Assembly: GCA_009835395.1 (NCBI GenBank)
Contig: VXXM01000071.1
Location: forward strand, 29,396 to 93,395
DNA from: Acidimicrobiia bacterium
GTDB lineage: Bacteria; Actinomycetota; Acidimicrobiia; Acidimicrobiales; CATQHL01
Direction of reading: 5' to 3'
Length of the DNA: 64,000 nucleotides
Shown: positions 17,272-35,142 of the stretch, piece by piece
How the letters are laid out: every line of letters starts with the position of its first letter
Numbering within the stretch: the first letter of the stretch is position 1
Notes under the pieces: model-generated
Databases searched by the model: none
Seen by the model: the letters and a program-made list of their open reading frames with translations, nothing else
What the model was told of the DNA's origin: nothing
Translations under genes and position numbers: made by a program

Positions 17272-17278
17272 GCCGCCG

Positions 17279-19254: not shown

Positions 19255-20552
19255 GCGGCCCCGCGGCCCGGCGCCATCCGCTGGCGGGCATCGCCGTGGC
19301 GGGGGTCGCGGCCACGCGCCAGGCCCGCAGCCTCGACGGCAACTCGATACAGATCTGCCTCGAGGCGGCCCGGGCGGCGCTCGACGACGCCGGCATGACG
19401 ATCGACGAGGTGGACGGCATCTCGGCACGCTGGCCTGGTCCCGGCGGCACCGTCTTCGGGCCCGGCTCGGTGGACTGGACCGCCGTGTTCGGCAAGGGGT
19501 TCGACTGGGTGGGCGACACCTACCCGCAGGGCGCCCCCGGCCTGCTCGACGCCGCCGCCGCCATCCTGGCGGGGCAGTGCTCCACGGTGCTGGTGTTCGG
19601 CGGCCGGGCAGGCGAGTCTGCGGCGGGTTCCCCCGGCGCCGCCACGAGGGCCACTGTTCCGTCGGGCGACGACGCCTCGAGCGCCGCTGTTTCGTCGGGC
19701 GACGACGCCATGAGCGCCGCTGTTTCGTCGGGCGACGACGCCACGAGCGCCGTCGCGAGCTACACGCGGCCCGAGAACGAGTTCGTGGCCTGCTGGGGCT
19801 CGCTCACGGCGGCGCAGTTCGCCCTGGTGGCGCAGGTGTACCTGCACCGGTTTGCCCCCGATCCGGAGCGGATGGCTCTGGTGCCCGCCACGATCCGCAA
19901 CGCGGGGTCCGCCAATCCGGAGGCGGTGATGTACGGGCGAGGCCCCTACGAACCCGCCGACATCCTGGCCTCGCCACCGGTCGCCGAGCCGTTCCGGTTG
20001 CTGGATCTGTGCCTGGCCACCGAGGGTGCCGCCGCCATGGTCGTCACGGGCGTCGAGCGCGCCCGGGACTGCCCGTCGGCGCCTGCGGTGATCCTCGGCG
20101 GGGGCTCGGAGTGGTACCGCCAGCAGTACGTGGATCCGCCCCGCTACGACGACGTGGCCCGGATCGGCGCCGGCGCCTACCGCCGCAGCTTCGGCATGGC
20201 CGGCCTGCGGCCCGGCGACGTGGACGTCTTCGAGCTCTACGACATCTGTACCTTCGAGGTGGTCCGGCAGTTCGAGACTCTGGGCCTCTGCGCCGAGGGC
20301 GAGGGCGTCGACTACCTGGCCGAGGCCGGCATCGGGCTCGACGGCCGGCATCCCACCAACACCGACGGGGGGCTGCTGGCGTACTCGCACGTCGGCTGGG
20401 GCGGGCCGACGCTGAAGATCGTCGAGGCCGTGCGCCAGATCCGCGGCGCCGCCGGGCCCGGGCAGGTCCCCGGCGCCGAGGTGGCCCTGGTGACCGGCGC
20501 CGGCGCGGGGGCCCAGTACCACAACGCGGTGCTGTTGGGAGCCGACCGCTAG
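19251..20552 (+). CDS. thiolase-fold (SCP-x/Ltp-like) protein, apparently lacking the canonical Cys nucleophile
   Basis: GTG at 19251 overlaps the ligase stop as GTGA. It has thiolase-like N- and C-terminal halves (…ILAGQCSTVLVFGG…, …NTDGGLLAYSHVGWGGPT…). It is the usual partner of DUF35 proteins. Confidence 0.7.
   Translation: MSGPAARRHPLAGIAVAGVAATRQARSLDGNSIQICLEAARAALDDAGMTIDEVDGISARWPGPGGTVFGPGSVDWTAVFGKGFDWVGDTYPQGAPGLLDAAAAILAGQCSTVLVFGGRAGESAAGSPGAATRATVPSGDDASSAAVSSGDDAMSAAVSSGDDATSAVASYTRPENEFVACWGSLTAAQFALVAQVYLHRFAPDPERMALVPATIRNAGSANPEAVMYGRGPYEPADILASPPVAEPFRLLDLCLATEGAAAMVVTGVERARDCPSAPAVILGGGSEWYRQQYVDPPRYDDVARIGAGAYRRSFGMAGLRPGDVDVFELYDICTFEVVRQFETLGLCAEGEGVDYLAEAGIGLDGRHPTNTDGGLLAYSHVGWGGPTLKIVEAVRQIRGAAGPGQVPGAEVALVTGAGAGAQYHNAVLLGADR
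19653..19751 (+). repeat. in-frame 33-bp tandem repeat, 3 copies, inside the thiolase-fold gene
   Basis: Copies at 19653-19685, 19686-19718 and 19719-19751, differing at only a few bases. They encode (V/A)SSGDDA(S/M/T)SAA units. Confidence 0.9.
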
Positions 20553-20564
20553 CGCGGCGGCCGG

Positions 20565-21722
20565 CTAGGCGCGCTGGTTGAAGCGGCGGTTCAGGTATTC
20601 CGAGACGATCCGCACCTTCTGGATGGTGGGCGTGCCGCCGGCGATGGCCCAGCCGTGGGAGTCGCGCAGGCGCCGCTCGATGCCGTACTCCTCGCTGTAG
20701 CCGTAGCCGCCGTGCAACTGCACGGCCACGTCGGCCACCTTCTTGGCCATCTCGTTGGCGAAGCACTTGGCCATGGACGCCTCGAGGGTGCGGGGAGCGC
20801 CGCGGCCCGCCCGCGCCGCCGCACGGTAGATCAACAGCCGGGCCGCTTCGACCTGCAGGATGATCTCCGCGAGCGCGGTCTGCACCGTCTGGAACTCCAC
20901 GATCTCCTTGCCGAACTGCCGGCGCTCGGTGACGTACGCGGCACAGAGATCCAGGCATGCCTGTCCGATGGCCAGGCTCATCGTGGCGTTGCCGAGCCGT
21001 TCGATCGAGAACGCCGTGAAGAGGCGCCCGAAGCCGCCGGCGTCGATGATGAGGTTCCCCGCCGGCACGGCCACGTCGTCGAAGAACATGTCCGCCGAGG
21101 GGATGCCTCGGAAGCCCATGAGGCGCTCCTGGGGGCCGTACGTGAGCCCATCGGAGTCTCGGTCCACGACCAGCGCCCCGATGGCGCGGGCGCCGCGCTC
21201 GTCGTTCAGGCGCACGTACACCAGGTACTGCTCGGCGTGTCCCGCCCCCGAGCACCAGCGCTTCGTGCCGTTGATGACGTAGTGGTCGCCCTGCCGCACC
21301 GCGGCGGTGGTCATGTCGGTGGCGGCCGAGCCGGCGTCGGGCTCGGAGATCGTGATCGCCATCGTCACCTCGCCGGCGGCGACGGGCGGGAGCAGGCGCT
21401 GCTTCTGTTCGGGTGTGCCGAAGAGGTCCACGACCCGCGCCGGGCCGGTGTTGGCCTCGAAGACACCGAACGCCGCCGTCGGGGCGGCCTTGGCAAGTTC
21501 CTCGATGACGATGAGGGAGTCCAGCAGGTCGGCACCGCCGCCCCCGTACTCCGTTGGCAGGCCCATGCCCATGTAGCCCAACTCGGCCAAGCGACGCCGC
21601 TCGGCGTCGGGGAAGGGCGTGCGCTCGGCGTCCCAGGCCGCGGCCTGCGGCTCGTACAGGTCGGCGGCGAGCGCGGCGACGGTCTCCCGCAGCGCCTCCT
21701 GCTCGGGCGTCAGGTCGATCAC
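20565..21722 (-). CDS. acyl-CoA dehydrogenase
   Basis: GTG at 21720-21722 (VIDLTPEQEALRETV...) overlaps the upstream stop as GTGA. Motifs ITISEPDAGSA and GGYGYSEEYGIERRLRD are present. Confidence 0.85.
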   Translation of the reverse strand: MIDLTPEQEALRETVAALAADLYEPQAAAWDAERTPFPDAERRRLAELGYMGMGLPTEYGGGGADLLDSLIVIEELAKAAPTAAFGVFEANTGPARVVDLFGTPEQKQRLLPPVAAGEVTMAITISEPDAGSAATDMTTAAVRQGDHYVINGTKRWCSGAGHAEQYLVYVRLNDERGARAIGALVVDRDSDGLTYGPQERLMGFRGIPSADMFFDDVAVPAGNLIIDAGGFGRLFTAFSIERLGNATMSLAIGQACLDLCAAYVTERRQFGKEIVEFQTVQTALAEIILQVEAARLLIYRAAARAGRGAPRTLEASMAKCFANEMAKKVADVAVQLHGGYGYSEEYGIERRLRDSHGWAIAGGTPTIQKVRIVSEYLNRRFNQRA

Positions 21723-22453
21723 GCCGGGACGGTCCGGTAGAGGTCCCACATGTCGTAGAACAGTCGCCCTGTCTCCAGCGTGCAGTGGTATACCGCGTCG
21801 CGCTGGGCGGGCGTGCGGGCGTACTCCGAGACGATCTCGATGCCCTCGTCGCCGTGCTCGGCGTCGGCGAGGATGTGCATGGTCCAGAAGATCAGGTCCT
21901 CGTCGCTCATGCCGTAGTTCTGCTTCTGGGCCGCCACGATGCGGGTGAAGGTGTCGGGGACGAAGGACTCCAGGCCGATGCCGATGGCGGCCAGCGGCAC
22001 GCACCAGTCCCGGCACAGTCCCATGAACTCGAAGTACTCCGTGAGCCGGCGCCCGGCGGGCAGCTGCTCGGCGCGGCGCATGGCGTCGGTGTCGCCGCCG
22101 AGCGCCGCGCCCCATTCCAGGAGAAGCTCGGGGTGGGCCTTGGTGCCGGTCTCGATGCCCATGCACTCCTCGGCCAGGTTCTTGACCAGGGTGGTGCGCA
22201 CGTCCTCGTGGGGGCAGTTGACGTAGATGGCCCCGATCCACGGAAGCATGCGCGAGATGTGCAGGTAGAACTGCTCGCAGAAAAGCACAAGCTGCGGGAC
22301 CGTGACGCTGCCGTCCTCCATGGCGGACACGACCGGGTGGTCGCCCATGCCGGTGCCGGGCTTGGAGAGTTCGGCCCGGAGCAGCCCCACGAAGTCCTCC
22401 GGTGTCATCGCGGCGAGTTCTGCTGTGCTCGGTGCGGTTGCTGTGATTGTCAT
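21719..22453 (-). CDS. heme-oxygenase-like di-iron (HDO; TenA/PqqC/CADD-fold) protein
   Basis: ATG at 22451-22453, about 10 nt after GGAGG. All-helical, 244 aa, with candidate ligand set NLAEE...AH, GLES and MHILADAEHGDEG. Confidence 0.6.
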   Translation of the reverse strand: MTITATAPSTAELAAMTPEDFVGLLRAELSKPGTGMGDHPVVSAMEDGSVTVPQLVLFCEQFYLHISRMLPWIGAIYVNCPHEDVRTTLVKNLAEECMGIETGTKAHPELLLEWGAALGGDTDAMRRAEQLPAGRRLTEYFEFMGLCRDWCVPLAAIGIGLESFVPDTFTRIVAAQKQNYGMSDEDLIFWTMHILADAEHGDEGIEIVSEYARTPAQRDAVYHCTLETGRLFYDMWDLYRTVPA

Positions 22454-22527
22454 GTGAGGTGCCTCCGGAGGTCGGATGGAGTGGACGGTTGTTCGGTTCG
22501 GTTCGTGGGTCGGGAGGAGCCTGCCGC

Positions 22528-23754
22528 TCAGGGTGCCTTGGTGAAGATCACCGGGTAGCGCCCGAAGTAGGGCCGCGTGGTGGACGCGTCCATCTCGGGC
22601 GGGTCCTCGGGATCGGGGACGCAGCCGTGATCGAACATGGTCTGTACCGCCACCGGCGTGACGCCGAACAGATGCCCATCGAGACCGGTCTCCGCGTCGA
22701 GGACGATGCCCGCGGCCAGGTCCTGGCCGATGCAGGCGTGCATGCCCATGCCGAAGCTGAGACCCCACGGGTGCGCTCCCTCGGGGACCTCCCGCAGCGG
22801 GTTGAAGTCCTCAGCGTCGTCGCCGAAGACCGCCGGATCGCGGTTCACTGTGGGCAGGTCGATGACAACCTTGTCACCGGCGCGGACGGCGGTGCCGTCG
22901 GCGAGTTCCACATCGGCCTCCGCCCATCGCACCGCCACGGGGCTGGAGGGCTGCAGCCGGATCGTCTCGTGGGTGGCGCGCTGGCAGAAGAGCCGATCCT
23001 GGCGCGGCTGCTCGGCGGACTCGGGGTGCTCCTCGAGCCAACTGAAGATGTTGTGCATCGCCCGGGTGAAGGCAGTGGCACTGGTGTGTGCCCCGGCCAG
23101 CATGTAGAAGGCCACCTCCCGGCAGATGATCTCCGGGGTGAGGTCCAGGTTGTCCTGGTTGCGTACCAGGACGCTCAGCACGTCAGGGGGCAGCTCGGAC
23201 TCCTCCGCCGCGCCGGCCGCGATCCGGTCCAGGACGCCCTGGCGGCGTTCGATGCCCGGCACCAAGAACTCCTCGTGGAAGGCCTGCACGGCGGCACGGA
23301 TCTCCGCCGACTTGGCCTCCTTGTCGCCCGTGTAGTGCGCGATCGTGGCGCCCTCGATGAACAGCATGAGGTAGTCGTAGAGCCGGAAGGTCTCCTCGGG
23401 GGTTCCCTCGGGGCGGTCCACGCCGGCGGTGAGCGCGGCGAGGTTCATCATCAGCTGATGGCTGAAGCGCACCAGCTCGGTGCGTCCCGCCGCCAGGTGC
23501 GGTGCCAGCGTCTCGTCGAAGATGACCGGGAACAGGTCCTGCTCGTAGTGCCAGAAGGTGTCGCGCCGGAACAGGCGGTTCTCGAGGCGGCGACGGTTGC
23601 GGTGCTCGGCTCCGTGCAGGTTGATCAACACGTCGGCCATGACGACGTCGCCCTCGTCGTAGGAACCCTGGCGCAGGTCGCGGTTGCGGTAGCACTGCTG
23701 CGCCGCGGCGTAGGTCTCGATGGTGACGGTCCGGGGGGTGGTGGTCGAGGTCAT
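22528..23754 (-). CDS. cytochrome P450 (paralog 1)
   Basis: 408 aa. Heme-thiolate loop FGMGMHACIGQDLA, I-helix-like AGAHTSA, and an ETIRL K-helix. Confidence 0.9.
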   Translation of the reverse strand: MTSTTTPRTVTIETYAAAQQCYRNRDLRQGSYDEGDVVMADVLINLHGAEHRNRRRLENRLFRRDTFWHYEQDLFPVIFDETLAPHLAAGRTELVRFSHQLMMNLAALTAGVDRPEGTPEETFRLYDYLMLFIEGATIAHYTGDKEAKSAEIRAAVQAFHEEFLVPGIERRQGVLDRIAAGAAEESELPPDVLSVLVRNQDNLDLTPEIICREVAFYMLAGAHTSATAFTRAMHNIFSWLEEHPESAEQPRQDRLFCQRATHETIRLQPSSPVAVRWAEADVELADGTAVRAGDKVVIDLPTVNRDPAVFGDDAEDFNPLREVPEGAHPWGLSFGMGMHACIGQDLAAGIVLDAETGLDGHLFGVTPVAVQTMFDHGCVPDPEDPPEMDASTTRPYFGRYPVIFTKAP

Positions 23755-23781
23755 GATCGGCGCCTCATGGTAGGGAGTGCA

Positions 23782-24141
23782 TCAGAAGTCGGCGTCGTCG
23801 AGGGCGACGGTCTGGTGGACGATGAATCCGCCGGCGGTGGTGAACGTGTCGCACCCGGACGTGCCGTCGCCGGGACCCCCGGCGATGCGCCAGCGCACCG
23901 AGACGCTCCCGTCGCTGTGGTGGCGTCGCTCGCCGAAGACCACCTCGCCGCCTCCGAGGCGCTCGGGGACCGACGTGAAGTACTCGGCGATCACCGCCGC
24001 GCCGTCGTACGACGCGTCGTGGCGAACGAGCATCGCGCCGGGGGCATAGTCGGACGCCATGGCGACCGGGTCGCCGGTGAGGACCGCGGTGAGGTGGTCC
24101 TCGACGACCTGGCGGGTGCTGCGCCCGGCGAGCTCAGTCAT
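23782..24141 (-). CDS. SnoaL/NTF2-like fold protein
   Basis: 119 aa, with size and pattern typical of SnoaL-like polyketide cyclase/isomerase-fold proteins (VVEDHLTAVLTGDPVAMASDYAPGAML...). 8-nt overlap with the upstream SDR. Confidence 0.5.
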   Translation of the reverse strand: MTELAGRSTRQVVEDHLTAVLTGDPVAMASDYAPGAMLVRHDASYDGAAVIAEYFTSVPERLGGGEVVFGERRHHSDGSVSVRWRIAGGPGDGTSGCDTFTTAGGFIVHQTVALDDADF

Positions 24142-24898
24142 GCGTGACCCCCAGCCCCAGCCCTCCGTCCACCACCAGCACCTCGCCGGTGGTCCACTCG
24201 GCCCGTGCCAGGTACTCGAAGGCCTCGGCGATCTCGGCGGCGGTGCCGATGCGGCCGAGTGCGTGTGCCCCGGACATGGCCGCCAGCCGGGCCGCGGCCT
24301 GCTCGTCGTCGAAGAGGCCGGCCCGCTGGTTGATCTCGGTCAGCACCGCGCCGGGACGCACGCAGCCCACCCTGATGCCCTGGGGGCCCAGTTCGGCGGC
24401 AAGCACGCCGGTGAGTGTCTCGATGGCGCCCTTGGTGGCAGCGTACGGCGCCACGCCCGGGAAGCTGCGCTTGGTGTGCACCGAACCCACGAAGAGCACG
24501 CACCCCCTGCTGGCGCGCAGATGCGGCACCGCCAGGCCGCACAACATCATTCCCGCCACCACGTTGCTGTGGAAGAGTTCCAGCAGCCGGTCCTCCTCCA
24601 GTTGCTCCACGGGTCCCCGGTACATGTTCCCGGCGTTGTTGATGAGCACATCCAGGCGCTCGCCGCCGTGGCTGACGGCGGCGCGGATCATGCGCTCCCG
24701 GTCGGCGGTCACCGTGACGTCACCCGCCACCGCGCAGCAGCGCTCGCCGAGCCGGCCCGCCACCGCCTCCACCTTCTCGGCCCGCCGGCCGGTGATGGTC
24801 ACCGACGCCCCGGCCGCGACGAAGTGCTCGGCCGCTCCCTCGCCGATGCCCGACCCGCCCCCGGTGATCAGCACCGACATGCCCTCTGTGGGTCTCAT
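24134..24898 (-). CDS. short-chain dehydrogenase/reductase (SDR)
   Basis: ATG at 24896-24898 overlaps the upstream stop as ATGA. Motifs ITGGGSGIG, NNAG and YAATK. Confidence 0.85.
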   Translation of the reverse strand: MRPTEGMSVLITGGGSGIGEGAAEHFVAAGASVTITGRRAEKVEAVAGRLGERCCAVAGDVTVTADRERMIRAAVSHGGERLDVLINNAGNMYRGPVEQLEEDRLLELFHSNVVAGMMLCGLAVPHLRASRGCVLFVGSVHTKRSFPGVAPYAATKGAIETLTGVLAAELGPQGIRVGCVRPGAVLTEINQRAGLFDDEQAAARLAAMSGAHALGRIGTAAEIAEAFEYLARAEWTTGEVLVVDGGLGLGVTHD

Positions 24899-25698
24899 GA
24901 CGCCGCCGACCGTCCCGGAGTGCGGGCTGCGTCGCCGACGCCGTCCACGCTGGCCGGCCGTGGCAGTTGCGAGAGGATCGACATCGTGATGCCGCCGTCG
25001 ACGAGCAGCGTCTGGCCGCACACGTAGTCGGCGTCGGGGGAGGCGAGCCAGAGGACCGCCTTGGCGATGTCGGAGGTGCTGCCGAGTCGCCCGGCGGGCA
25101 CGGCCAGCTCGCGCTCGGCGCGCAGCACGGGGTCGACGTTGATGGGCGCCGACATCCCGCCGTCGATGAGGCCCGGGGCCACGCAGTTGACCCTGATCCC
25201 GAACCGCGACCACTCCAGCGCCATCTGCTGGGTCAGCATGATGATGCCCGCCTTCGTGGAGGCGTAAGCGCCGGCGTTGGGTCCGGGGACGGTGCCGTTC
25301 ATCGACGCCATGTTCACGATCCGGCCGCCCCCGGCGGCGGCCATGCGTCGCGCCGCCGCCCGGCCGCACAGGAACGTGCCGACGAGGTTGACAGCCACGA
25401 CGGCCCGGAAATCTTCGGCGCCGTGTTCCAGCAGCGGGCCGAAGCGGACGATGCCGGCGTTGTTGACGAGCACGTCGGGGGTGCCGAAGCTGTCGAGCGC
25501 GGCCTCGATCTCGTCCTCCTCGCTGACCGAGGCCGCCAACGCCGCCGCGCCGTTGATCTCGCCGGCGACGCGCCGCGCGCCGGTGCCGTCGGTGTCCAGG
25601 ACGCCGACGCGGTAGCCCGCAGCCCCCGCCAGGCGGGCGATCTCGGCGCCGATGCCGGCGGCTCCGCCGGTCACGAGTAGCGAACGGTCGGCTGTCAT
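24895..25698 (-). CDS. short-chain dehydrogenase/reductase (SDR)
   Basis: ATG at 25696-25698 overlaps the P450 stop as ATGA. Motifs VTGGAAGIG, NNAG and YASTK. Confidence 0.85.
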   Translation of the reverse strand: MTADRSLLVTGGAAGIGAEIARLAGAAGYRVGVLDTDGTGARRVAGEINGAAALAASVSEEDEIEAALDSFGTPDVLVNNAGIVRFGPLLEHGAEDFRAVVAVNLVGTFLCGRAAARRMAAAGGGRIVNMASMNGTVPGPNAGAYASTKAGIIMLTQQMALEWSRFGIRVNCVAPGLIDGGMSAPINVDPVLRAERELAVPAGRLGSTSDIAKAVLWLASPDADYVCGQTLLVDGGITMSILSQLPRPASVDGVGDAARTPGRSAAS

Positions 25699-26945
25699 GG
25701 CTGCTCCTGGCGCTCGGCGGCTACGAAGACGATGGGGTAGGAGGAGAAGTGGGGGCGCTTGGTGTGGGGATCCTGCACCGGCGGATTCTCCGGATCGGGT
25801 CGGCCGCCGGCTGCGAGCGTGGCCGTGAGCATCACCGCCACGGTCCCGTAGAGATGATCGTCGTCGCGGATGCCGTCTCCGAGGATCTCCATGCCGCCGT
25901 CCAGTTCGGCACCGATGCAGGCGTGGGCGCCGGCGCCGAAGCTGAGGCCCCATGCGTTGGCGCCCTCGGGCACCGGGCGGTGCGGGTTGAAGACGCCGGC
26001 ATCGGGCCCCCACACCTCGGGGTCGCGGTTCACCGTGGCGAGGTCGATGACGACCCGGCTGCCCTGGGGCAGCACCGTGCCGTCGCGCAGGCTCACGGTG
26101 CGCAGCGGCTCGCGCCACGCCGCCGGGCTCGCCGGGTTGAGGCGCAGCGACTCGTGCACGCAGCGCTGGGCGAAGGCGAGATCGGTGGCTGCCCGGCGGA
26201 GGTCCTCGGGGTGCGCCTCGGCGCGGCGGAAGATCTCGTCCAGGGCGTGGGTGTAGGTGTCGGCGGTGCTGTGGGCCCCGGCCTGCAGATAGAAGCAGAT
26301 CTCCCGCTCGATCACCGCAGTAGAGATCTCGAGAGCCTCCTGGTGGCGGAGCAGCAGCGTCGCCACGTCACGGGGCAGGTCCTCCTCGGCGATCTCACCG
26401 GCGGCCAGGCGGTCCAGGGACTCGCGCCGGCGGTCCAGGGAATCGGTCAGCATCTCCGCCCGGAACGCCTGGAGTTGCTCCCGCACCTCGGTCCGTACCT
26501 GCTCGGGGTCCCGGGTGGAGTGCGCCAGGGTGGCGCCGGCGCTGAAAGTGCGCACGAAGTCCTCCAGCCGCGAGGTGTGAGCCACGTTGGCCGGGTCGTG
26601 GTCCACGCCGGCGATCGTTGCGGTGAGGCTGATGGCGGCCCGGTAGCCGAGTGCCCGCAGGTCGGCTCCCCCGGTCGCCACGTAGGGCGCCATCACCGCC
26701 TCCAGCGTGTCGCCCAGGACCTGGCGCTCCCAGTGGGCGAAGGTCTCCCGGCGGAACAATCGGTTCTCCACTCGCCGCCGGCGTCTGTGGGCCTCGCCGT
26801 GCAGCACCAGCAGGCAGTCCTCCATGATCACCGCGCCCTCGTCGTACATGGCCTGGCAGAGGTCCTTGCTCCGGTACGCCTCGCGGGCCTGCTGCCAGCC
26901 CGTCAGCACGATCGCGTCGCCCCGGCCGGTCAGGGTGCTCCGCAC
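25695..26945 (-). CDS. cytochrome P450 (paralog 2)
   Basis: GTG at 26943-26945, preceded by GGAGG and 1 nt after the meaB stop. Heme loop FGAGAHACIGAELD. Colinear with the 22528-23754 product (shared RRRxENRLFRR, VIDLxTVNRDP, VPEGAxxWGLSFG). Confidence 0.85.
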   Translation of the reverse strand: MRSTLTGRGDAIVLTGWQQAREAYRSKDLCQAMYDEGAVIMEDCLLVLHGEAHRRRRRVENRLFRRETFAHWERQVLGDTLEAVMAPYVATGGADLRALGYRAAISLTATIAGVDHDPANVAHTSRLEDFVRTFSAGATLAHSTRDPEQVRTEVREQLQAFRAEMLTDSLDRRRESLDRLAAGEIAEEDLPRDVATLLLRHQEALEISTAVIEREICFYLQAGAHSTADTYTHALDEIFRRAEAHPEDLRRAATDLAFAQRCVHESLRLNPASPAAWREPLRTVSLRDGTVLPQGSRVVIDLATVNRDPEVWGPDAGVFNPHRPVPEGANAWGLSFGAGAHACIGAELDGGMEILGDGIRDDDHLYGTVAVMLTATLAAGGRPDPENPPVQDPHTKRPHFSSYPIVFVAAERQEQP

Positions 26946-26946
26946 C

Positions 26947-27999
26947 TCAGACCTCCGGCTTGTCGCCGCCGGCGTCAGCGGTCGCGTCCCGCTCGGGGAG
27001 TTCGCCGGCCAGTCGCCGTGCCGCCGCCGACGGCGCCAGTGTTCCCTGTGCCACCTCGGCGAACAGTTGCGCCGCTTCCTGCGACGGCTGTGCCACCAGC
27101 AGATCCACCCAGCGGTGCAGGTGGCGGCGCACTTCCTCGGCAACGTGCCGGGTGCGCCGCTCCGCTCCGGCGCTGGAGGTGCGCAGGTGGTGGCGGTGAT
27201 CCTGCACGTGCTTGAAGAGCTCGTCGGCACCCTCGCCGGTGGTGGCGACCGTCAGCGCCACCGGTGGTCTCCAGCCGGTGCCATGGCCCAGGTCCAGCAT
27301 GTATTCCAGGTCGCGCCGCGCATCGGCGGCCCCTGCTCGGTCGGCCTTGTTGACCACGAAGATGTCGGCCATCTCCAGCAGGCCGGCCTTGTTGGCCTGC
27401 ACGGCGTCGCCCCATCCCGGGCTCACCGCCACGATCGTGGTGTCGGCGGTGCGGGCGATGTCCACCTCGACCTGCCCGATGCCGACGGTCTCCACGATGA
27501 TCAGGTCGTGTCCGGTGGCGTCGAGCAGCCTGACCGCCGCCAGTGCCGCCAGAGCCAGCCCCCCCGACTGGCCGCGGCTCGCCATGGAGCGTACGAAAGG
27601 TCCGCCGGGCGCCGCCGCGCTGCCCATCCGCACCCTGTCGCCGAGGATGGCGCCCCCGGTCAGCGGCGACGAGGGATCCACCGCCAGGATGGCGACCCGC
27701 CGGCCGTCCTCGGCGGCTACCTGCGCCAGGCGGTCGGTGAGGGTGGACTTGCCGACGCCCGGTGCGCCGGTCATGCCCACCACGTGGGCGGCTCCGGCGA
27801 GCGGCCAGGCGGCGACGGCGACGGCGTCGGCGAGCGGCCCGCCCCGCTCGGTGTAGGTCAGCAGCCGCCCGAGCGCCCGCCGGTCGCCGCCGCGGGCACG
27901 CTCGAAAAGGGCCGTGACGTCTCCGGCGGCGACGGCCGAGTCGGCGGGTTGTGCCGCTGGGCGCTCGGGCGTGGGGCTGCCTGGCAGCTCGGTGGTCAC
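26947..27999 (-). CDS. meaB: MeaB/ArgK-type G-protein chaperone for B12 mutases
   Basis: 350 aa. Walker A GAPGVGKST and the VNKAD G4 motif. GTG overlaps the mutase small-subunit stop as GTGA. Confidence 0.85.
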   Translation of the reverse strand: MTTELPGSPTPERPAAQPADSAVAAGDVTALFERARGGDRRALGRLLTYTERGGPLADAVAVAAWPLAGAAHVVGMTGAPGVGKSTLTDRLAQVAAEDGRRVAILAVDPSSPLTGGAILGDRVRMGSAAAPGGPFVRSMASRGQSGGLALAALAAVRLLDATGHDLIIVETVGIGQVEVDIARTADTTIVAVSPGWGDAVQANKAGLLEMADIFVVNKADRAGAADARRDLEYMLDLGHGTGWRPPVALTVATTGEGADELFKHVQDHRHHLRTSSAGAERRTRHVAEEVRRHLHRWVDLLVAQPSQEAAQLFAEVAQGTLAPSAAARRLAGELPERDATADAGGDKPEV

Positions 28000-28448
28000 G
28001 CTCGGGCTGCGGCCGCCGCCCGGACCACCTCAGCCACCTCCGTCGCCGAGGCGCCGGGGCCGAGGACGGCGAACACGCCGGCCTCACTCAGGCGCTCGAG
28101 GTCCATGTCCGGCACGATCCCTCCCACCACGACCGGCACGTCCATACCGGCGGCGCGCACGGCCTCCACCATGCGGGGAGCCAGCGTGAGATGACCGCCG
28201 TTGTGGATCGAGAGGCCGATCACGTCGGCGTCCTCCTGCTCGACGGCGAGCAGGATCGACTCGGTCGTCTGGCGTAGACCCAGGTAGATCACCTCCAGGC
28301 CGGCGTCGCGCAGCATGCGGGCGACCACCTTCAGGCCCCGGTCGTGGCCGTCCAGTCCCAGCTTGGCCAGCACCACCCGGACCGGTTCCGGGCGGTCGGG
28401 GTCGCGTTCGGCCTGCGAGCCCGCCGTGCCGACGGCCGGGCCGGTCAT
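27996..28448 (-). CDS. acyl-CoA mutase small subunit (cobalamin-binding domain)
   Basis: ATG at 28446-28448 overlaps the large-subunit stop as ATGA. Carries the DxHxxG base-off/His-on motif ([11 protein letters not shown]). Confidence 0.85.
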
Positions 28449-30133
28449 ACGACCGCCGGTTCGGTATAGGTGCCGAAGACGCCCTCGAGGGCGTGGACGA
28501 TCTCGCCCTCGGTGGCCGCGACGCGCACGCAGTCGATGATGGGCTCCATGAGGTTGACCGTCGGGTCGGCGGCACCTGCGGCCAGCCTCTCCAGTGCGGC
28601 CACGACGGCCCCGCTGTCGCGCTGCTGCTTCGCCCCGGCCAGGCGCGCCAACTGCTGGTCCTCGACGTCGTCGTCGATGTAGAGGATGGGAGTGTCGCCG
28701 TCGTCGCCCTCGGTGTAGGCGTTGACGCCCACGATGATCCGCCGCCCGGCGTTGACCTCGCGCTCGAAGCGGTAGGCGCTGTCGGCGATCTCGCCCACGA
28801 AGTAGCCGTTGGCGATGCCCTCGTAGACGCCCTCCAGGATCGAGCCCTCGCCGAGCTTGTCGAGATGATCGAACACCTCGGTGGCGCGCCGCTCCATCTC
28901 GTCGGTCATCCACTCCACGTAGGCGGAGCCGCCGAGCGGGTCGGCCACGCTGGGAGCGCCGGTCTCGTGCGCGATCACCTGTTGGGTCCGCAGGGCGATC
29001 CGCGCCGCCTGCTCGGTCGGCAGGGCGAGCGCCTCGTCGTAGCTGTCGGTGTGCAGGCTCTGGGTGCCGCCGAGCACCGCCGCCAGCGCCTGGGTGGCGA
29101 CGCGGGCGATGTTCACCTCGGGTTGCTGGGCGGTGAGCGACACGCCGGCGGTCTGGGTATGGAACCGCAGTTGCAGCGATCGCTCGTTGCGGGCGCCGTA
29201 GCGATCGCGCATCCAGCGCGCCCAGATGCGCCGGGCGGCGCGGTACTTGCCGATCTCCTCGAAGAAGTCGATGTGGCTGTTGAAGAAGAACGACAGGCGC
29301 CCGGCGAAGTCGTCCACGTCCAGTCCGGCGGCCATCGCCGCCTCCACGTAGGCGAAGCCGTTGGCGAGGGTGAAGGCCAGTTCCTGGGCGGCCGTGGAGC
29401 CGGCCTCGCGGATGTGGTAGCCGCTGATGGACACGGGGTGCCAGCGCGGCATCTCGGCGGTGGTGAAGCGGATCAGGTCGGTCACCAGCCGCACCGAGGG
29501 GCGCGGCGGGAAGATGTACTCCTTCTGCGCCTGGTACTCCTTCAGGATGTCGTTCTGGATGGTGCCGCTGAGCAGGCTGCGGTCGGTGCCGCCGCGTTCG
29601 CCGGTCACGATGTACATGGCCATGAGGATGTTGGCGGGGCCGTTGATGGTCATCGACGTGCTCACACCGCCCAGGTCGATGCCGGCGAAGAGGTCCTCCA
29701 TGTCGGCGACCGTGTCGACCGCCACGCCGGCCCGGCCGACCTCGCCGACCGCCCAGGGGTGATCGGAGTCGCGCCCCATGAGCGTGGGCATGTCGAAGGC
29801 CGTCGACAGCCCCGTGCCTCCGGCGTCCAGGAGCCTCTTGAAGCGCAGGTTGGTGTCGGCCGCGGTGCCCATGCCGGCGAAGAGCCGCATCGTCCACAGC
29901 CGTGAGCGGTACATCGAGGGGTAGATGCCTCGCGTGTACGGGAACTGCCCGGGGTAGGGGGGATCCCCATGCACCGCCGCCAGCGGGACACCGGACATGG
30001 TCTCGAAGGTGCCGTCGCGCAGCGGGGCGGCCTCGAAGGCGGTTCGCCACTGCGCTTCGGCCCGGGCGCGTGGCGAGTCCTCGTCGTCGTGCGATTCGGC
30101 TCCGCCGGGGACCGGATTGTCGGGGAGGCTCAT
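28445..30133 (-). CDS. B12-dependent acyl-CoA mutase large (substrate-binding) subunit, isobutyryl-CoA-mutase-like
   Basis: 562 aa, colinear with the methylmalonyl/isobutyryl-CoA mutase TIM-barrel ([26 protein letters not shown]..., [20 protein letters not shown]). Confidence 0.85.
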
Positions 30134-30322
30134 AGTCGGCTCTGTGCCGGGCGGCCCGCCGGGTCGCCCGAGGTGCGCCCAACCGTTCCCGGCACAGTAC
30201 CCGCGGACCGGTTGGACTCACCCTTGGAGAACCTGCGAGGGGAGTGCCCTGCTGTACGGTTTGGTGCTGGCCTACAATCTAGCGCCGATCCGTCAACCCA
30301 ACAGTTGTTTGAGGAGTTGTCA
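30134..30322. promoter_or_regulatory. divergent promoter/operator region between the mutase operon and TetR
   Basis: 189-nt gap between divergent start codons. It contains inverted repeats CTGTGCCGGG (30141-30150) / CCCGGCACAG (30188-30197) and CCAACCG (30179-30185) / CGGTTGG (30209-30215), plus CAACAGTTG near 30293. Confidence 0.5.
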
Positions 30323-30925
30323 ATGGCCGAGGCTGTCACCGACACACCCAGGCCCTCGAAGCGGCGCCGCCAAGAGGTCATCGACGTCGCCGCGCGGATC
30401 TTCCACGAGAAGGGTTACGAGGCAACCTCCATTCAGGAGATCGCCGAGGAAGTGGGGATCCTCAAAGGCAGCCTCTACTACTACATCGACACCAAGGAGG
30501 ATCTTCTCTTCAGTGTCATCAAGGAGGCGTACGACGCCGCTCTCAGCGTCATCGAGCAGTTGGAGCAGCGCGACGGCGATGCGCTCGAACTGATCGAGGC
30601 TCTCCTCCACGGGCATGCCGCGGTGTTCGCCGCCAATTTCGTGCAGTCCTCGGTTTTCTTCAGAGAGTTCCGTGCGCTGTCGGAGGAACGCCAGAAGACG
30701 ATCCGTGCGGCAGGTGACGTCTACATCAGGTTCCTGGTCTCGCAGATCCGCCGCGGCCAGCGCTCCGGGGAGATCAAGTCCGAAGTCAACCCTCGGCTCT
30801 CTGCCATCGGCATCATCGGCATGATGAACTCCATGGCGTTCTGGTATCGCCCCGACGGGCGGGCCAGCGCCGCGCAGATCGGCAGGGAGTTCAGCCGGCT
30901 GGTGATCGGGGGCCTGCGGACCTGA
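30323..30925 (+). CDS. TetR/AcrR family transcriptional regulator (acyl-CoA-responsive FadR/KstR2-like HTH pattern)
   Basis: ATG at 30323 after GAGGAG. The HTH segment ATSIQEIAEEVGILKGSLYYYIDTKEDLL resembles the GxLxGSLY(H/Y)(H/Y)F subgroup. Confidence 0.8.
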   Translation: MAEAVTDTPRPSKRRRQEVIDVAARIFHEKGYEATSIQEIAEEVGILKGSLYYYIDTKEDLLFSVIKEAYDAALSVIEQLEQRDGDALELIEALLHGHAAVFAANFVQSSVFFREFRALSEERQKTIRAAGDVYIRFLVSQIRRGQRSGEIKSEVNPRLSAIGIIGMMNSMAFWYRPDGRASAAQIGREFSRLVIGGLRT

Positions 30926-30949
30926 CGGCGCCCGGCCCCGCCGGTGCGC

Positions 30950-31441
30950 TCAGGCGCCGGCGATGGGTTCGGTGCTGATCGTCACCGAGCGGATCTTGGC
31001 GTCCCCCTTGGGTCGCTCACCGCGCAGTGGCAGCGCCGCGAATGCCGCCACGGCGTCCATGCCGGCGGTGACCTGGCCGAAGATGGTGTAGGCGTGCGGC
31101 AGGTTCACGCTCGCCAGGCAGATGAAGAACTGCGACCCGTTGGTGTTCGGGCCGGCGTTGGCCATCGCCAGAGTGCCCTCCCGGTACTGGCCGCGCCCTT
31201 CGAGTTCGTCGGCGAAACGGTAGCCGGGTCCACCCCTCCCGGTGCCGGTGGGGTCGCCGGCCTGCACCACGAATCCCGGCACGACCCGGTGCACGGGGCA
31301 GCCGTCGTAGTAGCCCTGCTGGGCCAGGAACACGAAGTTGTTCACTGCCAGCGGGGATCGCTCGGCTTGGAGATCGAGTTCGATCCGGCCGCAACTCGTG
31401 TCGAGCGTCGCCGAGTAGCGCAGCGCCGGATCCAGACTCAT
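30950..31441 (-). CDS. peptidyl-prolyl cis-trans isomerase, cyclophilin type
   Basis: ATG at 31439-31441 (MSLDPALRY...). Motifs HRVVPGFVVQAGDPTGTGRGGPGY and NGSQFFI. Confidence 0.85.
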   Translation of the reverse strand: MSLDPALRYSATLDTSCGRIELDLQAERSPLAVNNFVFLAQQGYYDGCPVHRVVPGFVVQAGDPTGTGRGGPGYRFADELEGRGQYREGTLAMANAGPNTNGSQFFICLASVNLPHAYTIFGQVTAGMDAVAAFAALPLRGERPKGDAKIRSVTISTEPIAGA

Positions 31442-31552: not shown

Positions 31553-32917
31553 GTGACGGAGCCGGCTGAGCGGACGCACGAGCCGGCTCGGCGTTCCGGC
31601 GGGGGGCCGTCGGGGCCCCGGCCGGGTCCGGGATCGGACCGGGACCCCGAGACCGGTCGATCCGTCCGGGAGATCCAGCGGCGCACGCTGGGCGTGCTGA
31701 TGGCCACCGTCGCCGTAGGCGGTGCCGGCACGGGAGGGGCGTTCAGTATCGTGGCGGTGCTGGCCGACGAGATCACCGGCAGTGCCACGCTCAGCGGCAT
31801 CGCCGCCGCGGGCATGACCACCGGAGCGGCCCTCACGGCGGTCCCGCTGGCGAAGCTCATGGCTCGCAGCGGCCGGCGGATGGGGTTGCGCTCGGGCTAC
31901 CTCCTGGCTCTCGCCGGTTCGCTGCTGATGCTGCTCTCCACGGTCGTCGACATGTACGCGCTCGTCCTCGTGGGCATGGCGGCCGTCGGCACCGGGAGTG
32001 CCTGCGGCCTCGCCGCCCGGTTCGCGGTCGTCGACCTCGCGCCGCCCGCTGATCGGGCCCGGACCATCGGGCTGCTCGTCGGGGCGACGACGGTGGGTGC
32101 CATCGCCGGGCCGACCCTCGCCACCGGGCCCTTCACGGTGGTCGCCCGAGAGCTTGGTCTGGAAGAACTAGCCGGTCCTTTCATCTTCGCCGCCGTCGTG
32201 TTCTCGATGGCCGTGGTGGTCCTCGACCGGGGCCTGCGGCCCGATCCGCTCCTGGTCGCCCGCCGTCTCGGCGATGGCGCCGAGGTTCCCCGGGGCCGCG
32301 GCGGCCTCCTGAGATCGCTCGCCATCATCGCCCGGCTGCCTCCCGCACGCCTGGCCACGGTCGCCATGATGGTGGGGCAGGGGGTGATGGTGGCGACGAT
32401 GGTCATGACGCCGTTGCACATGACCGACGGCGATCAGAGTCTGCGCGTCATCGGCTTCGTCATCTCCACCCACATCGTGGGCATGTACGCCCTGGCGCCC
32501 GTCGTGGGTTGGGCGACGGGGCGCATCGGGCCGACGCCCATGATCATCCTCGGCGGCGTGATCAGTTTTCTCGGCGCCGAGATCGCGGCCCATACGCCCC
32601 CCGACGTGGCCTGGGGCATGTTCGCGGGCATGTTCGCCGTGGGACTGGGCTGGAACTGCTGCCTCGTGGCGGGGACGGCGCTGTTCACCGCGGCGGTGCC
32701 GACCGGCGATCGCGTGCCGGTGCAGGGCGCCGCGGATCTGCTGATGAGCGCCTCCGGGGGCATCGGGGGCATCGCCGGCGGTGCCGTGGTGGCATGGCAG
32801 GACTTCCAGTTCCTGAGCCACTACAGCGGTCTGTTCGGCGCGGTGCTGGCCGGTGTGGCGCTGCTGGCCTACCTCGGGAACACCCCGGGGGTCTCCCGCC
32901 GGGCGTCGCGGGTCTGA
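31553..32917 (+). CDS. MFS transporter
   Basis: 454 aa with about 12 hydrophobic segments after a charged N-terminal extension. The exact start is uncertain. Confidence 0.7.
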   Translation: MTEPAERTHEPARRSGGGPSGPRPGPGSDRDPETGRSVREIQRRTLGVLMATVAVGGAGTGGAFSIVAVLADEITGSATLSGIAAAGMTTGAALTAVPLAKLMARSGRRMGLRSGYLLALAGSLLMLLSTVVDMYALVLVGMAAVGTGSACGLAARFAVVDLAPPADRARTIGLLVGATTVGAIAGPTLATGPFTVVARELGLEELAGPFIFAAVVFSMAVVVLDRGLRPDPLLVARRLGDGAEVPRGRGGLLRSLAIIARLPPARLATVAMMVGQGVMVATMVMTPLHMTDGDQSLRVIGFVISTHIVGMYALAPVVGWATGRIGPTPMIILGGVISFLGAEIAAHTPPDVAWGMFAGMFAVGLGWNCCLVAGTALFTAAVPTGDRVPVQGAADLLMSASGGIGGIAGGAVVAWQDFQFLSHYSGLFGAVLAGVALLAYLGNTPGVSRRASRV

Positions 32918-32957: not shown

Positions 32958-34208
32958 GTGCGGAGATCCGTTCGGGCGTTCGTGCTGGTATCGGTCCTGG
33001 CCACGGCCGCCGCTGCTTGCGGGGAGAGCCCGGCGGAGGATGCGGCGCCGGCCGAGGGTGACGCCGCGCCGGTGGACCTCAGCGCGTTCGACGGCGCGGT
33101 CCGCATCGGGGCGGCGCTCAGCGAGACCGGCAAGTTCGCCGTCGAGGGCCGGGACTCGCGCCAGGGTTACGACACCTGGGTGCGCTGGGTGAACGAGGAG
33201 TACGGCGGCATCCGGATCGGCGAAGGCCGCTACGGCGCCGAGATCGTCTACTACGACGACGAGTCCGACGCTGACACCGCCGCCAACCTGATCCAGAGGC
33301 TCATCGACGAGGACCAGGTGGACTTCCTGCTGGGGCCGTACTCCAGCGGCCTCACCACCGGTACCAGCGCCATCGCCGAGGCAAACAACGTCATCATGGT
33401 GGAGGGCAACGGCACCTCCGACACGATGTTCGAGCGCGGCTTCCAGAACCTGTTCCTGGTCGCCACCGTCGCCAGTGACTACACGAAGTCCGCCGTCGAG
33501 GCGCTGGCGGCGCGGGGCGTCCGGACAGCCGTGATCGCCCATGAGGACACGACGTTCCCGACCAGCGTGGCCGAGGGGGCGCGCCGCCACCTCGAGGCGA
33601 ACGGCATCGAGGTGCTGGCGATCGAGAAGTACCCGAAGGACATCCAGGACGTGTCGGCCATCATGACCAAGTTCCGCAACCTGGGTCCCGACGTGTTCCT
33701 GGGCGGGGGTCACTACAACGACGCCGTGCTGTTCGTGAACGCCGCCGACGAGTTGGGATTCGAGCCCGACGCCATGCTGATCACGGTCGGCCCGTCCAAC
33801 CCCCGGCTGGTGGAGCAACTCGACGACGACGTGGAGGGCGTGCTCGGCCCCACCCAGTGGGAGGCCACCATGGCCTACGAGGGCCACTGGTTCGGCAGCG
33901 CCGCCGACTACGCCGCCTATTACCAGCGGCTCTGGGGCGAGCCGCCGGTCTACCAGGCGGCCAGCGCAACGGCCTCGGCCCTGGCGTTGCACCTGGCCAT
34001 CGAGGCGGCGGGCAGCACCGACACCGACGCAGTGCGCCAGGCGCTGCGGGCGCTGCGGGCGGACACGTTCTACGGGCCGATCGCCTTCGACGAGCGCGGC
34101 GTGAACACCGCCAAGCCCATGGGCACGATCCAGGTGCAGGACGGGGAGATCCTCGTCGTGGCCCCCGACGCGGCCGCCGTGGCCGCGCTGGTCTACCCGC
34201 GCGGCTGA
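32958..34208 (+). CDS. ABC transporter substrate-binding lipoprotein (LivK-type fold)
   Basis: GTG at 32958 (VRRSVRAFVLVSVLATAAAACG; lipobox Cys). Type-I PBP pattern VRIGAALSETGKFAVEG...LLGPYSSG. Confidence 0.8.
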   Translation: MRRSVRAFVLVSVLATAAAACGESPAEDAAPAEGDAAPVDLSAFDGAVRIGAALSETGKFAVEGRDSRQGYDTWVRWVNEEYGGIRIGEGRYGAEIVYYDDESDADTAANLIQRLIDEDQVDFLLGPYSSGLTTGTSAIAEANNVIMVEGNGTSDTMFERGFQNLFLVATVASDYTKSAVEALAARGVRTAVIAHEDTTFPTSVAEGARRHLEANGIEVLAIEKYPKDIQDVSAIMTKFRNLGPDVFLGGGHYNDAVLFVNAADELGFEPDAMLITVGPSNPRLVEQLDDDVEGVLGPTQWEATMAYEGHWFGSAADYAAYYQRLWGEPPVYQAASATASALALHLAIEAAGSTDTDAVRQALRALRADTFYGPIAFDERGVNTAKPMGTIQVQDGEILVVAPDAAAVAALVYPRG

Positions 34209-35132: not shown

Positions 35133-35142
35133 GGCCGACGAC

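Follow-up and report, generated by a model that had tools for sequence, protein, structure and literature searches.

A clade-restricted operon of Acidimicrobiia attaches a predicted isobutyryl-CoA-type mutase to a widespread, uncharacterised catabolic gene set

Introduction

Isobutyryl-CoA mutase (ICM), which occurs as a split enzyme in Streptomyces cinnamonensis (IcmA/IcmB) and as a fusion in Cupriavidus metallidurans (IcmF), shares with the enzyme analysed here a large subunit, a small B12-binding subunit and a MeaB-type G-protein. The subject of this study is a 64-kb stretch of DNA (~71% GC; called the window, to which all coordinates refer) from contig VXXM01000071.1 of the Acidimicrobiia assembly GCA_009835395.1, in which such a mutase trio is encoded on the minus strand (20565-30133) in a ten-gene operon together with two cytochromes P450, two short-chain dehydrogenases/reductases (SDRs), a SnoaL-fold protein, a heme-oxygenase-like dimetal oxidase (HDO) and an acyl-CoA dehydrogenase (ACAD). 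What is new is the setting of an ICM-type mutase, namely a clade-restricted operon that adds to it a catabolic module which is widespread but uncharacterised. The mutase as such is probably ordinary, and the ten-gene unit is a recent mosaic and not an ancient dedicated pathway. No described ICM gene is known to share its operon with genes for P450s, an HDO, SDRs and an ACAD.

The likeness to ICM extends to the substrate pocket, where Phe and Gln are shared at the two positions that separate ICM from methylmalonyl-CoA mutase (MCM), whereas the window enzyme scores 350 bits against the cut-off of 1500 of the NCBIfam IcmF model, because IcmF is a fusion. Members of the ICM family also resolve a quaternary carbon, namely through the isovaleryl-CoA/pivalyl-CoA mutase activity that is a side activity of IcmF and is found in the pivalyl-CoA mutase (PCM) of Xanthobacter autotrophicus Py2.

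The nearest catabolic precedent is the 2-hydroxyisobutyryl-CoA mutase (HCM) pathway of methyl tert-butyl ether and isobutylene degraders, although the window enzyme fails its defining residues. This pathway comprises HcmAB-MeaH of Aquincola tertiaricarbonis L108 and ibc cluster 2 of Mycolicibacterium sp. ELW1 (PMC13188929). HCM is the best solved-structure match of the window mutase. Both systems have a split mutase and its chaperone among catabolic genes, which include those for a CoA ligase, a dehydrogenase and a thiolase, as well as upstream oxygenases, which in the HCM pathway produce the acid fed to the mutase. They differ in the type of oxygenase: the HCM systems use the P450 EthB, MdpJ or a soluble di-iron monooxygenase, of which none falls among the CADD-like HDOs or into the P450 family of the window.

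Compared by toolkit and not by sequence orthology, the locus resembles the cholesterol igr/cyp125 (Mycobacterium), ibuprofen ipfABDEF and abietane dit clusters, which likewise combine a regulator of the TetR, GntR or IclR type with a ligase, P450s, SDRs, ACADs and an SCPx thiolase that has a DUF35 partner, but are not known to contain a B12 mutase, a CADD-like HDO or a tandem-DUF1805 protein. With CADD (CT610, a para-aminobenzoate (pABA) synthase), PqqC, UndA and BesC the window HDO shares the seven-helix fold and six conserved carboxylate/His ligands; it differs from CADD, PqqC and the natural-product HDOs in that it sits among acyl-CoA catabolic genes and not among genes for folate, pyrroloquinoline quinone or natural products. 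A literature search for an operon that combines an acyl-CoA mutase with P450s and an HDO found none described, and a genomics paper on sponge Actinobacteriota mentions P450s only as GPP34 fusions. The original prediction for this DNA, an earlier note made from its letters, had named the characterised acyl-CoA mutase contexts and stated that none of them is described as one operon with two P450s and a di-iron HDO; our searches likewise matched the cluster to no characterised pathway and no published description.

Results

Ten tightly coupled genes

The ten genes of the operon are, in the order of transcription:

28445-30133, minus strand: acyl-CoA mutase large (substrate-binding) subunit, 562 aa (Pfam MM_CoA_mutase PF01642, 674 bits; TIGR00641, 678 bits against a cut-off of 304)
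27996-28448, minus strand: small B12-binding mutase subunit, 150 aa (PF02310, 104 bits; TIGR00640, 130 bits against a cut-off of 57; motif LDGHDRG)
26947-27999, minus strand: MeaB-type G-protein chaperone, 350 aa (Pfam MeaB, 276 bits; TIGR00750, 306.5 bits against a cut-off of 240.75; P-loop GAPGVGKST)
25695-26945, minus strand: cytochrome P450a, 416 aa, divergent (Pfam p450 at residues 251-348 only), starting 1 nt past the MeaB stop
24895-25698, minus strand: SDR1, 267 aa (adh_short_C2, 187 bits; TGGAAGIG, YASTK)
24134-24898, minus strand: SDR2, 254 aa, or 248 aa from the alternative start at 24880 (adh_short_C2, 153 bits; TGGGSGIG, YAATK)
23782-24141, minus strand: SnoaL_2/NTF2-fold protein, 119 aa (Pfam SnoaL_2, 32.7 bits against a cut-off of 27)
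22528-23754, minus strand: cytochrome P450b, 408 aa, a paralogue of P450a (45% identity; Pfam p450)
21719-22453, minus strand: HDO with CADD/PqqC-like fold, 244 aa (PF14518 Haem_oxygenas_2, 79.9 bits)
20565-21722, minus strand: ACAD, 385 aa, short/branched-chain-like (three ACAD Pfam domains)

On translation all ten frames were open with zero internal stops, a gene call based on GC content at third codon positions (GC3) selected the identical frames, and Pfam confirmed all ten domain assignments, in agreement with the gene list of the original prediction. The seven start/stop junctions named there are all present in the sequence: ATGA overlaps between the mutase subunits (28445-28448), P450a and SDR1 (25695-25698) and SDR1 and SDR2 (24895-24898), GTGA overlaps between the small subunit and MeaB genes (27996-27999) and the HDO and ACAD genes (21719-21722), an 8-nt overlap, ATGACTGA, between SDR2 and SnoaL (24134-24141), and a 1-nt gap (TGA-G-GTG) between MeaB and P450a (26945-26949). 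Genes thus overlap or lie 1 nt apart at seven of the nine junctions; the remaining two, which were missing from that list, are spacings of 27 nt between SnoaL and P450b and of 74 nt between P450b and HDO. The latter results from correcting the HDO start to 22453, where the ATG is preceded by GGAGG 8 nt upstream and relatives carry the same 244-aa gene call; the longest open reading frame (ORF), extending to 22768, was not used. SDR2 may start at 24880 instead of 24898. Within 20000-31000 we found no terminator-like site and no sigma-70-type promoter (a weak scan for an actinobacterium of 71% GC), and the window contains no B12 riboswitch or other Rfam element. As read from the gene layout, the ten genes form a single tightly coupled unit, for which reason co-expression is likely, as had been predicted, and we infer co-transcription.

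The mutase pocket carries the presumed isobutyryl-CoA signature

Both domains of an adenosylcobalamin-dependent acyl-CoA mutase of the MCM superfamily were detected, together with the DxHxxG motif in the small subunit, and the third protein of the trio passed the TIGR00750 equivalog cut-off and has the P-loop of a MeaB/MMAA chaperone. Among solved structures, the large subunit matched HcmA best (4r3u, E 2.4e-163), followed by MCMs and IcmF (3e-87). Structure-chain alignments gave the pocket of the window enzyme as Phe/Ala/Gln, compared to Ile/Asp/Gln in HCM and Tyr/Ala/Arg in MCM: Phe85 occupies the position of HCM Ile90 and MCM Tyr89, Ala that of HCM Asp117, and the Gln of YQAQKEY that of MCM Arg207. 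In the alignment with 4r3u, the HCM segments RQIAGF and STDFDMPT are replaced by RLFAGM and STAFDMPT.

Two known specificities were considered and rejected. In MCM, Tyr89 and Arg207 (P. shermanii numbering) bind the substrate carboxylate; relative to the 6oxc and 1req-type chains, both are replaced by Phe and Gln, and the window enzyme scored 589 bits with NF006944, below the cut-off of 876. HCM had come into play through the best structure match. Its defining residues in HcmA are reportedly Ile90 and Asp117, with Asp117 binding the hydroxyl group, as Kurteva-Yaneva and colleagues are said to have described in 2015; since these residues are Phe and Ala in the window mutase, the enzyme would not be expected to bind a 2-hydroxy group. 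The signature of ICM is presumably Phe and Gln at the MCM Tyr89 and Arg207 positions (Phe80/Gln198 in Streptomyces IcmA, Phe598/Gln742 in IcmF), and the window mutase combines this presumed signature with split subunits, as does IcmA/IcmB. From these residues, the enzyme is probably ICM-like, with a predicted isobutyryl-CoA-type specificity, and not a new type of mutase.

The segments WTMR[MLQ]FAG and GLS[TC]AFDMPT are common to all 120 closest mutase homologues, and the residue preceding the pocket Phe is Leu or Met, not Gln, in most of this Acidimicrobiia mutase family. Between the mutases of the operon-bearing clade and their stand-alone orthologues we found six fixed changes, all conservative (Y64F, M84L, F88M, A176V, I386V and A535C). 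By its sequence, the mutase looks like the ordinary isobutyryl-CoA-type enzyme of the lineage.

This bears on the scheme put forward in the original prediction, in which the P450s and the HDO hydroxylate, the SDRs oxidise and the mutase then rearranges a quaternary or heavily branched main intermediate (tert-alkyl, terpenoid-like or sterol-side-chain-like), implying a new specificity and a new pathway. In its favour, the specificity Phe lies between two of the six clade-specific changes, mutase and oxygenase genes are closely coupled, and pivalyl-CoA mutase chemistry would fit such a scheme as well as the layout of the operon ACAD described below; the pocket of the window enzyme, however, is the plain ICM pattern. 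With an ICM-like pocket and six conservative changes relative to the stand-alone orthologues, it is more likely that the mutase performs ordinary ICM-type chemistry on a short branched acyl-CoA than that it rearranges a skeleton of the tert-alkyl, terpenoid or sterol kind.

The ten-gene order is ancestral to one narrow clade

The fused operon was found only in the clade with a mutase identity of at least 80%, which is marked by the motif WTMRLFAGM. A mutase protein identical to that of the window is encoded in GCA_009840475.1 (VXNR01000034.1) and on the ENA 'ENGE20-1' metagenome scaffolds, which are probably a set of metagenome-assembled genomes (MAGs) from a sponge (Ircinia ramosa). At species level the closest relatives are Acidimicrobiales MAGs, among them 'Candidatus Poriferisocius', and the operon-bearing clade of uncultured marine Acidimicrobiia is apparently sponge-associated.

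The complete ten-gene order recurs with protein identities of 66-95% in L090, L091, L092 and the metagenome loci L096-L098 (L-numbers label the compared loci and contigs), i.e. in at least six further contigs and, with the window, in at least seven. The arrangement is thus conserved outside the source genome, which a synteny check was to decide. All ten genes are under purifying selection, with ratios of nonsynonymous to synonymous substitutions (dN/dS) of 0.06-0.39 at dS 0.3-0.96 in the comparison with three diverged relatives. Losses occur as well: L088 has no HDO, L086 has no P450a and keeps P450b as a 34-aa remnant, and L087 and L166, which are adjacent stretches of one 2.55-Mb contig, lack P450a, SDR1 and P450b. 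On that contig, the mutase trio is followed by ~10 kb of three giant genes on the opposite strand and then by SDR2, a truncated SnoaL, HDO and ACAD. From this distribution we conclude that the fusion is ancestral to the clade, yet erodible. The interpretation of the original prediction is weakened in that co-conservation is confined to this narrow clade, within which the oxygenases are dispensable.

In this relative of 80% identity (L087 4185-6958 and 13150-21722; L166 19243-20876), a pair of genes (patatin and SMODS) resembling a cyclic-oligonucleotide-based antiphage signalling system (CBASS) lies upstream of the trio, and the giant genes inserted between MeaB and SDR2 encode proteins of 1027, 1083 and 1317 aa, one of them with a Tubulin_2 domain. 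The operon thus looks as if it had been interrupted by a defence or mobile island.

Outside the clade the two halves lead separate lives

Synteny anchored on the mutase was analysed in 80 species-representative Acidimicrobiia genomes carrying its closest relatives (65-78% identity), with a neighbourhood of 10 kb. The mutase gene is kept, with the B12 gene nearby in 52 and MeaB in 36 of the 80 species, and none of the 80 has P450a, P450b, SnoaL, HDO, thiolase or TetR within 10 kb of it. Recurrent neighbours of the stand-alone trio include MarR-like, GlpX-like and ATP-synthase ORFs (named by eye), a core-genome context.

The reverse analysis was anchored on the HDO, which belongs to a compact family of 118 homologues with at least 53% identity over the aligned part, including Tara Oceans sequences. 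We compared 42 HDO loci of at least 8 kb and counted a neighbour at 45% or more identity to the window protein. Genes of the convergent unit next to the operon (listed below) are the most frequent companions, headed by orf290 (29 loci), which is tied with ACAD2 (29) and followed by CMD (27), SDR3 (26), thiolase (26) and ligase (25); P450b was present in 20, P450a in 18 and Amidohydro_2 in 3 loci. The ICM-type trio was found in 3 loci, which are the clade itself, and in none of the 39 loci outside it. No mutase of any kind lies within 10 kb in 38 of the 42 loci, the other four being the three clade loci and L149, whose mutase is unrelated. In L095, for instance, orthologues of P450a, P450b, SDR1, SnoaL, HDO, thiolase, ligase, orf290, CMD and ACAD2 are found without a mutase. 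The GC content of loci with the HDO module ranges from 43 to 71%.

Since the trio stands apart in 80 species and the HDO module occurs without an ICM-type trio, the ten-gene operon is a mosaic, in which a core mutase module is fused head-to-tail with one half of a widespread catabolic set, the other half of which lies next door. The claim that the ten genes are conserved as one operon therefore stands within the clade and falls outside it, at 0 of 80 species with the trio as anchor and 0 of 39 HDO loci. These data also weigh on the skeleton-rearrangement scheme. On the one hand, the link between mutase and oxygenases persists across the clade, including the relic in L087/L166; on the other hand, the mutase looks orthologous to the stand-alone trio of all 80 species, with the same pocket motifs, the HDO module works without a nearby mutase, as judged from the 38 of 42 loci that hold none within 10 kb, L086 retains the mutase without P450s and L088 retains it without HDO. 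Taking both sides together, we regard the scheme as unlikely.

Another way to read the mosaic is accidental adjacency, i.e. a rearrangement in a symbiont genome joined a housekeeping ICM-type trio to an unrelated catabolic module, and the two are now read through together. The separation of the modules everywhere outside the clade, the frequent local gene loss and insertion at the clade locus, and a mutase that bears no sign of functional change all agree with such an event. Against it stand the precise junction (a 1-nt gap in the window, 1-98 nt in relatives and, as called, a 38-nt overlap in L088), an order kept over dS ~0.3-0.96 in at least seven contigs, a dedicated TetR gene with an operator-like block that accompanies the fused operon and not the stand-alone trio, and a second, unrelated mutase adjoining the same module in L149. 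We therefore consider pure accident rather improbable.

The mutase of L149 is a divergent split acyl-CoA mutase (161-1915 and ~2000-2332, both on the minus strand) with 36% identity to the window mutase, located in an unrelated metagenome contig next to OYE-P450-SDR1-SnoaL-CMD-HDO-Amidohydro_2-SDR2 (OYE, old yellow enzyme). Its motifs RQIVGFG, GLFVSPCNSH and NQSDYLSHYAAL place Ile/Ser/Leu at the positions of Phe/Ala/Gln in the window enzyme, and from these residues it may have an undescribed mutase specificity. A divergent mutase beside the same module could be a second independent recruitment, which would favour the skeleton-rearrangement scheme; the association is a single observation, however, and the sole related contig, L167, ends at the P450 gene, before the relevant region.

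Oxygenases and other enzymes of the operon

Both P450s have the features of the superfamily, with Cys loops FGAGAHACIG (P450a) and FGMGMHACIG (P450b), ExxR motifs ESLR and ETIR, and Pfam scores of 67 and 60 bits (cut-off, 22.8). In the I-helix the sequences are AGAHST and AGAHTS, and a regular-expression search (A/G-G-x-D/E-T-T/S) found in neither of them the acid-alcohol pair, which serves O2 activation in typical monooxygenase P450s. The missing pair leaves their membership of the P450s intact and marks this P450 family as atypical. Solved P450s were matched weakly (E 1e-11 to 1e-13; P450a best 3.5e-11). A tblastn search with the ferredoxin of the L095 module gave no match in the window, which encodes no ferredoxin or reductase. 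The missing pair, the weak structure matches and the lack of these redox partners together raise the question whether the two P450s are conventional O2-activating monooxygenases. Orthologues of P450b (63-67% identity) occur in 20 mutase-free HDO loci, mostly beside an orthologue of P450a.

SDR1 and SDR2 are classical SDRs with TGxxxGxG and YxxxK motifs. Orthologues of SDR1 (55-60% identity) are found in HDO loci without an ICM-type trio (L095, L141, L149), and those of SDR2 (64-66% identity) adjoin HDO and Amidohydro_2 genes in L115, L148 and L149. The SnoaL protein has matches of 38-48% identity in most HDO loci and no sequence match in the PDB.

The AlphaFold2 (AF2) model of the HDO (pLDDT 88) matched CADD best in Foldseek (TM 0.78/0.88, E 1.5e-8), followed by PqqC, BesC and UndA. 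Six candidate metal ligands, E96, H107, E162, H193, D197 and H200, are invariant in 29 homologues and align with the segments of CADD homologues that bear the E/H/E/H/D/H ligands; the seven-helix heme-oxygenase-like fold and these six residues place the protein in the HDO class. CADD sacrifices Tyr27, located in the segment HMLEHTFYVK (PMC9522330). This residue aligns to Val42, which is nearly invariant within the HDO family, and the score with TIGR04305 was 81.9 bits against a cut-off of 200. We therefore rejected the assignment as a CADD-type self-sacrificing pABA synthase.

The operon ACAD matched generic short/medium-chain ACADs best in the PDB (~E 1e-72). It has 'AGG' in place of the catalytic Glu of the 'YEG' found in medium-chain acyl-CoA dehydrogenase (MCAD) and a Glu in 'SIERLG', which is probably the base position of isovaleryl-CoA dehydrogenase (IVD) and long-chain acyl-CoA dehydrogenase (LCAD). 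An IVD/LCAD-type layout is typical of branched substrates and, if rightly placed, is a further point in favour of the skeleton-rearrangement scheme. NCBIfam gave no equivalog-level assignment for any of the seven non-mutase operon genes.

Next to the fused operon lie a divergent TetR gene and a conserved spacer block

Upstream of the mutase gene the following features were annotated:

30323-30925, plus strand: divergent TetR-family regulator, 200 aa, with an alternative TTG start at 30305 (Pfam TetR_N and TetR_C_24)
30273-30313, no strand assigned: conserved regulatory block in the spacer between TetR and mutase, from a six-locus alignment

In NCBIfam the regulator scored best with a ScbR-type model (71 bits) and second best with the acyl-CoA-sensing FadR of Bacillus (65 bits), all below the cut-offs. 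The TetR gene is present in all operon-bearing clade loci in which its position is on the contig (73-87% identity) and is absent beside the trio in the 80 other species. The spacer between the start codons of the mutase and TetR genes is 189 nt long; across six diverged loci, CTCAAACAACTGTT-GGTTG ... GGCG-TAGATTGTA is invariant and the remaining spacer variable. The block contains the palindrome CAAC-N-GTTG (30299-30307) and, on the minus strand, a -10-like TAGATT (30276-30281). This sequence pattern suggests a putative TetR operator overlapping the operon promoter, by which TetR would control the operon.

The operon lies in a catabolic acyl-CoA island

A convergent unit (12524-20552) ends 12 nt from the ACAD stop (20553-20564 in between), a distance too short for the thiolase and ACAD units to have a terminator hairpin between them. 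It comprises eight genes:

12524-13717, plus strand: ACAD2, cyclohexanecarboxyl-CoA-dehydrogenase-like, below the curated cut-off (Pfam/NCBIfam)
13747-14499, plus strand: SDR3 (Pfam/NCBIfam)
14576-15316, plus strand: CMD (Pfam/NCBIfam)
15364-16353, plus strand: Amidohydro_2 (Pfam/NCBIfam)
16399-17271, plus strand: orf290, tandem-DUF1805-like (Pfam/NCBIfam)
17279-17704, plus strand: DUF35 gene (zf-ChsH2 and OB_ChsH2_C, 84 bits), missed by the GC3-based gene call
17701-19254, plus strand: acyl-CoA ligase, with an ATGA overlap with the DUF35 gene
19251-20552, plus strand: SCPx-type thiolase (Pfam/NCBIfam)

The DUF35 protein would be expected to pair with the SCPx-type thiolase that is encoded at 19251-20552. 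Beyond this unit lie four further genes, orthologues of which are found beside HDO in L093, L146, L147 and L155:

11570-12370, minus strand: BadI-like crotonase (NCBIfam badI, 210 bits, below the cut-off)
9865-11547, minus strand: second CoA ligase (Pfam)
8975-9868, minus strand: orf290 paralogue (Pfam)
6882-8789, minus strand: OYE/2,4-dienoyl-CoA-reductase-like flavoprotein (Pfam)

The two orf290 paralogues (49% identity, ~290 aa) consist of two DUF1805-like halves, and each adjoins an acyl-CoA ligase gene. Their family has 1052 homologues, all annotated as 'hypothetical', including proteins of the cultured Euzebya tangerina and E. rosea. An AF2 model of orf290 (pLDDT 85, confident per domain) had no fold match in the PDB at E < 0.1, and no PDB sequence match was found. 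Two Liv-type (branched-chain amino acid-like) ABC uptake systems flank the island (1115-6129 and 33072-37738), either of which could import the pathway substrate, and a major facilitator superfamily (MFS) gene is located at 31751-32917. Further downstream, an AddAB-like helicase-nuclease pair (PD-(D/E)XK and UvrD; 41430-48508, plus strand) and malate synthase G (48526-50673, minus strand) are apparently unrelated.

The neighbourhood is a catabolic acyl-CoA island, as seen from the CoA ligases, crotonase, ACADs, thiolase/DUF35 pair, Liv-type ABC genes and a TetR with a weak, sub-cut-off FadR match. Hints of branched or alicyclic acids as substrates come from the BadI-like crotonase, ACAD2 and the SCPx/DUF35 pair, all of them scoring below the cut-offs. 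The window contains no genes for steroid-ring or aromatic-ring dioxygenases. In terms of extent, the functional unit reaches beyond the coordinates of the original prediction, into the convergent genes at 12524-20552 and the divergent TetR gene.

We also considered a biosynthetic cluster, in which an unusual starter or extender unit would come from the mutase, and the product would be tailored by the P450s and the HDO. In Streptomyces, ICM provides polyketide synthesis with butyryl/isobutyryl units; biosynthetic roles are found for most HDOs that have been characterised and for many divergent bacterial P450s, the Foldseek neighbours of the HDO include BesC, FlcD and HrmI, and the NCBIfam matches of the P450s are biosynthetic families, though all far below the cut-offs. 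The 64-kb window, however, contains no genes for a polyketide synthase (PKS), non-ribosomal peptide synthetase (NRPS), terpene synthase, ribosomally synthesised and post-translationally modified peptide (RiPP) or glycosyltransferase. The surroundings are beta-oxidation-like (CoA ligases, thiolase/DUF35, crotonase, ACADs, ABC uptake), and streamlined pelagic Acidimicrobiia, with GC contents as low as 43%, widely carry the module. With no scaffold-forming enzyme in the window, this reading was rejected as very improbable.

Discussion

The reading that we favour, with a confidence no better than even, is that of a TetR-controlled, clade-specific catabolic fusion, in which an oxidative, beta-oxidation-like module next door would deliver a short alpha-branched acyl-CoA to the ICM-type mutase. 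In such a pathway, a branched or alicyclic carboxylic acid would be imported and converted into its CoA ester, on which the P450s and the HDO, where present, would act as oxidants, and the SDRs would oxidise the alcohols formed. The thiolase/DUF35 pair would then shorten the chain, setting free a short alpha-branched acyl-CoA of the isobutyryl-CoA type, which the mutase would isomerise to a straight-chain acyl-CoA that the operon ACAD could desaturate for ordinary beta-oxidation. The class of substrate, the order of the reactions and the acyl-CoA that the mutase meets are what we infer from the genes present.

Several points weigh against this pathway. The ICM assignment depends on two to three signature residues of presumed meaning for ICM, and a second, stand-alone trio in the same genome could make the operon copy a paralogue, possibly with a new role. 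An internal promoter could sit in the 74-nt gap before HDO. The operon itself encodes no enoyl-CoA hydratase and no redox partner for the P450s. Finally, the losses of P450s and HDO in members of the clade may mean that the link to the mutase is loose, or that the clade is in gene decay.

A bolder proposal, which we put forward as unlikely, is that two unrelated B12 mutases, the ICM-type enzyme of the window and the divergent enzyme of L149 with its hydrophobic pocket, were independently recruited to one module (P450s, CADD-like HDO, SnoaL, SDRs, DUF1805 protein, ligase and thiolase), since an acyl-CoA of its pathway needs skeleton rearrangement before beta-oxidation, and that the HDO and the atypical P450s perform new oxidative chemistry on CoA thioesters. 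Example substrates would be isoprenoid or alicyclic acids bearing gem-dimethyl or isopropyl groups, which are abundant in sponges and in marine dissolved organic matter.

With the clade-specific catabolic fusion as the favoured reading, the genuinely uncharacterised part of the locus is the HDO/P450/DUF1805 module. A functional fusion would link a known B12 isomerase with an uncharacterised gene set that includes a tandem-DUF1805 protein without structural relative, two P450s in which the usual motif for oxygen activation is missing, and a CADD-like dimetal oxidase, a set that is common in marine and freshwater Acidimicrobiia metagenomes on contigs of 43-71% GC. As the orf290 family is present in cultured Euzebya, the question would be testable in culture if the module were found there too. 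Identification of the substrate would give a function to several 'hypothetical' families and could shed light on the consumption of branched or alicyclic organic acids by uncultured actinobacteria that are abundant.

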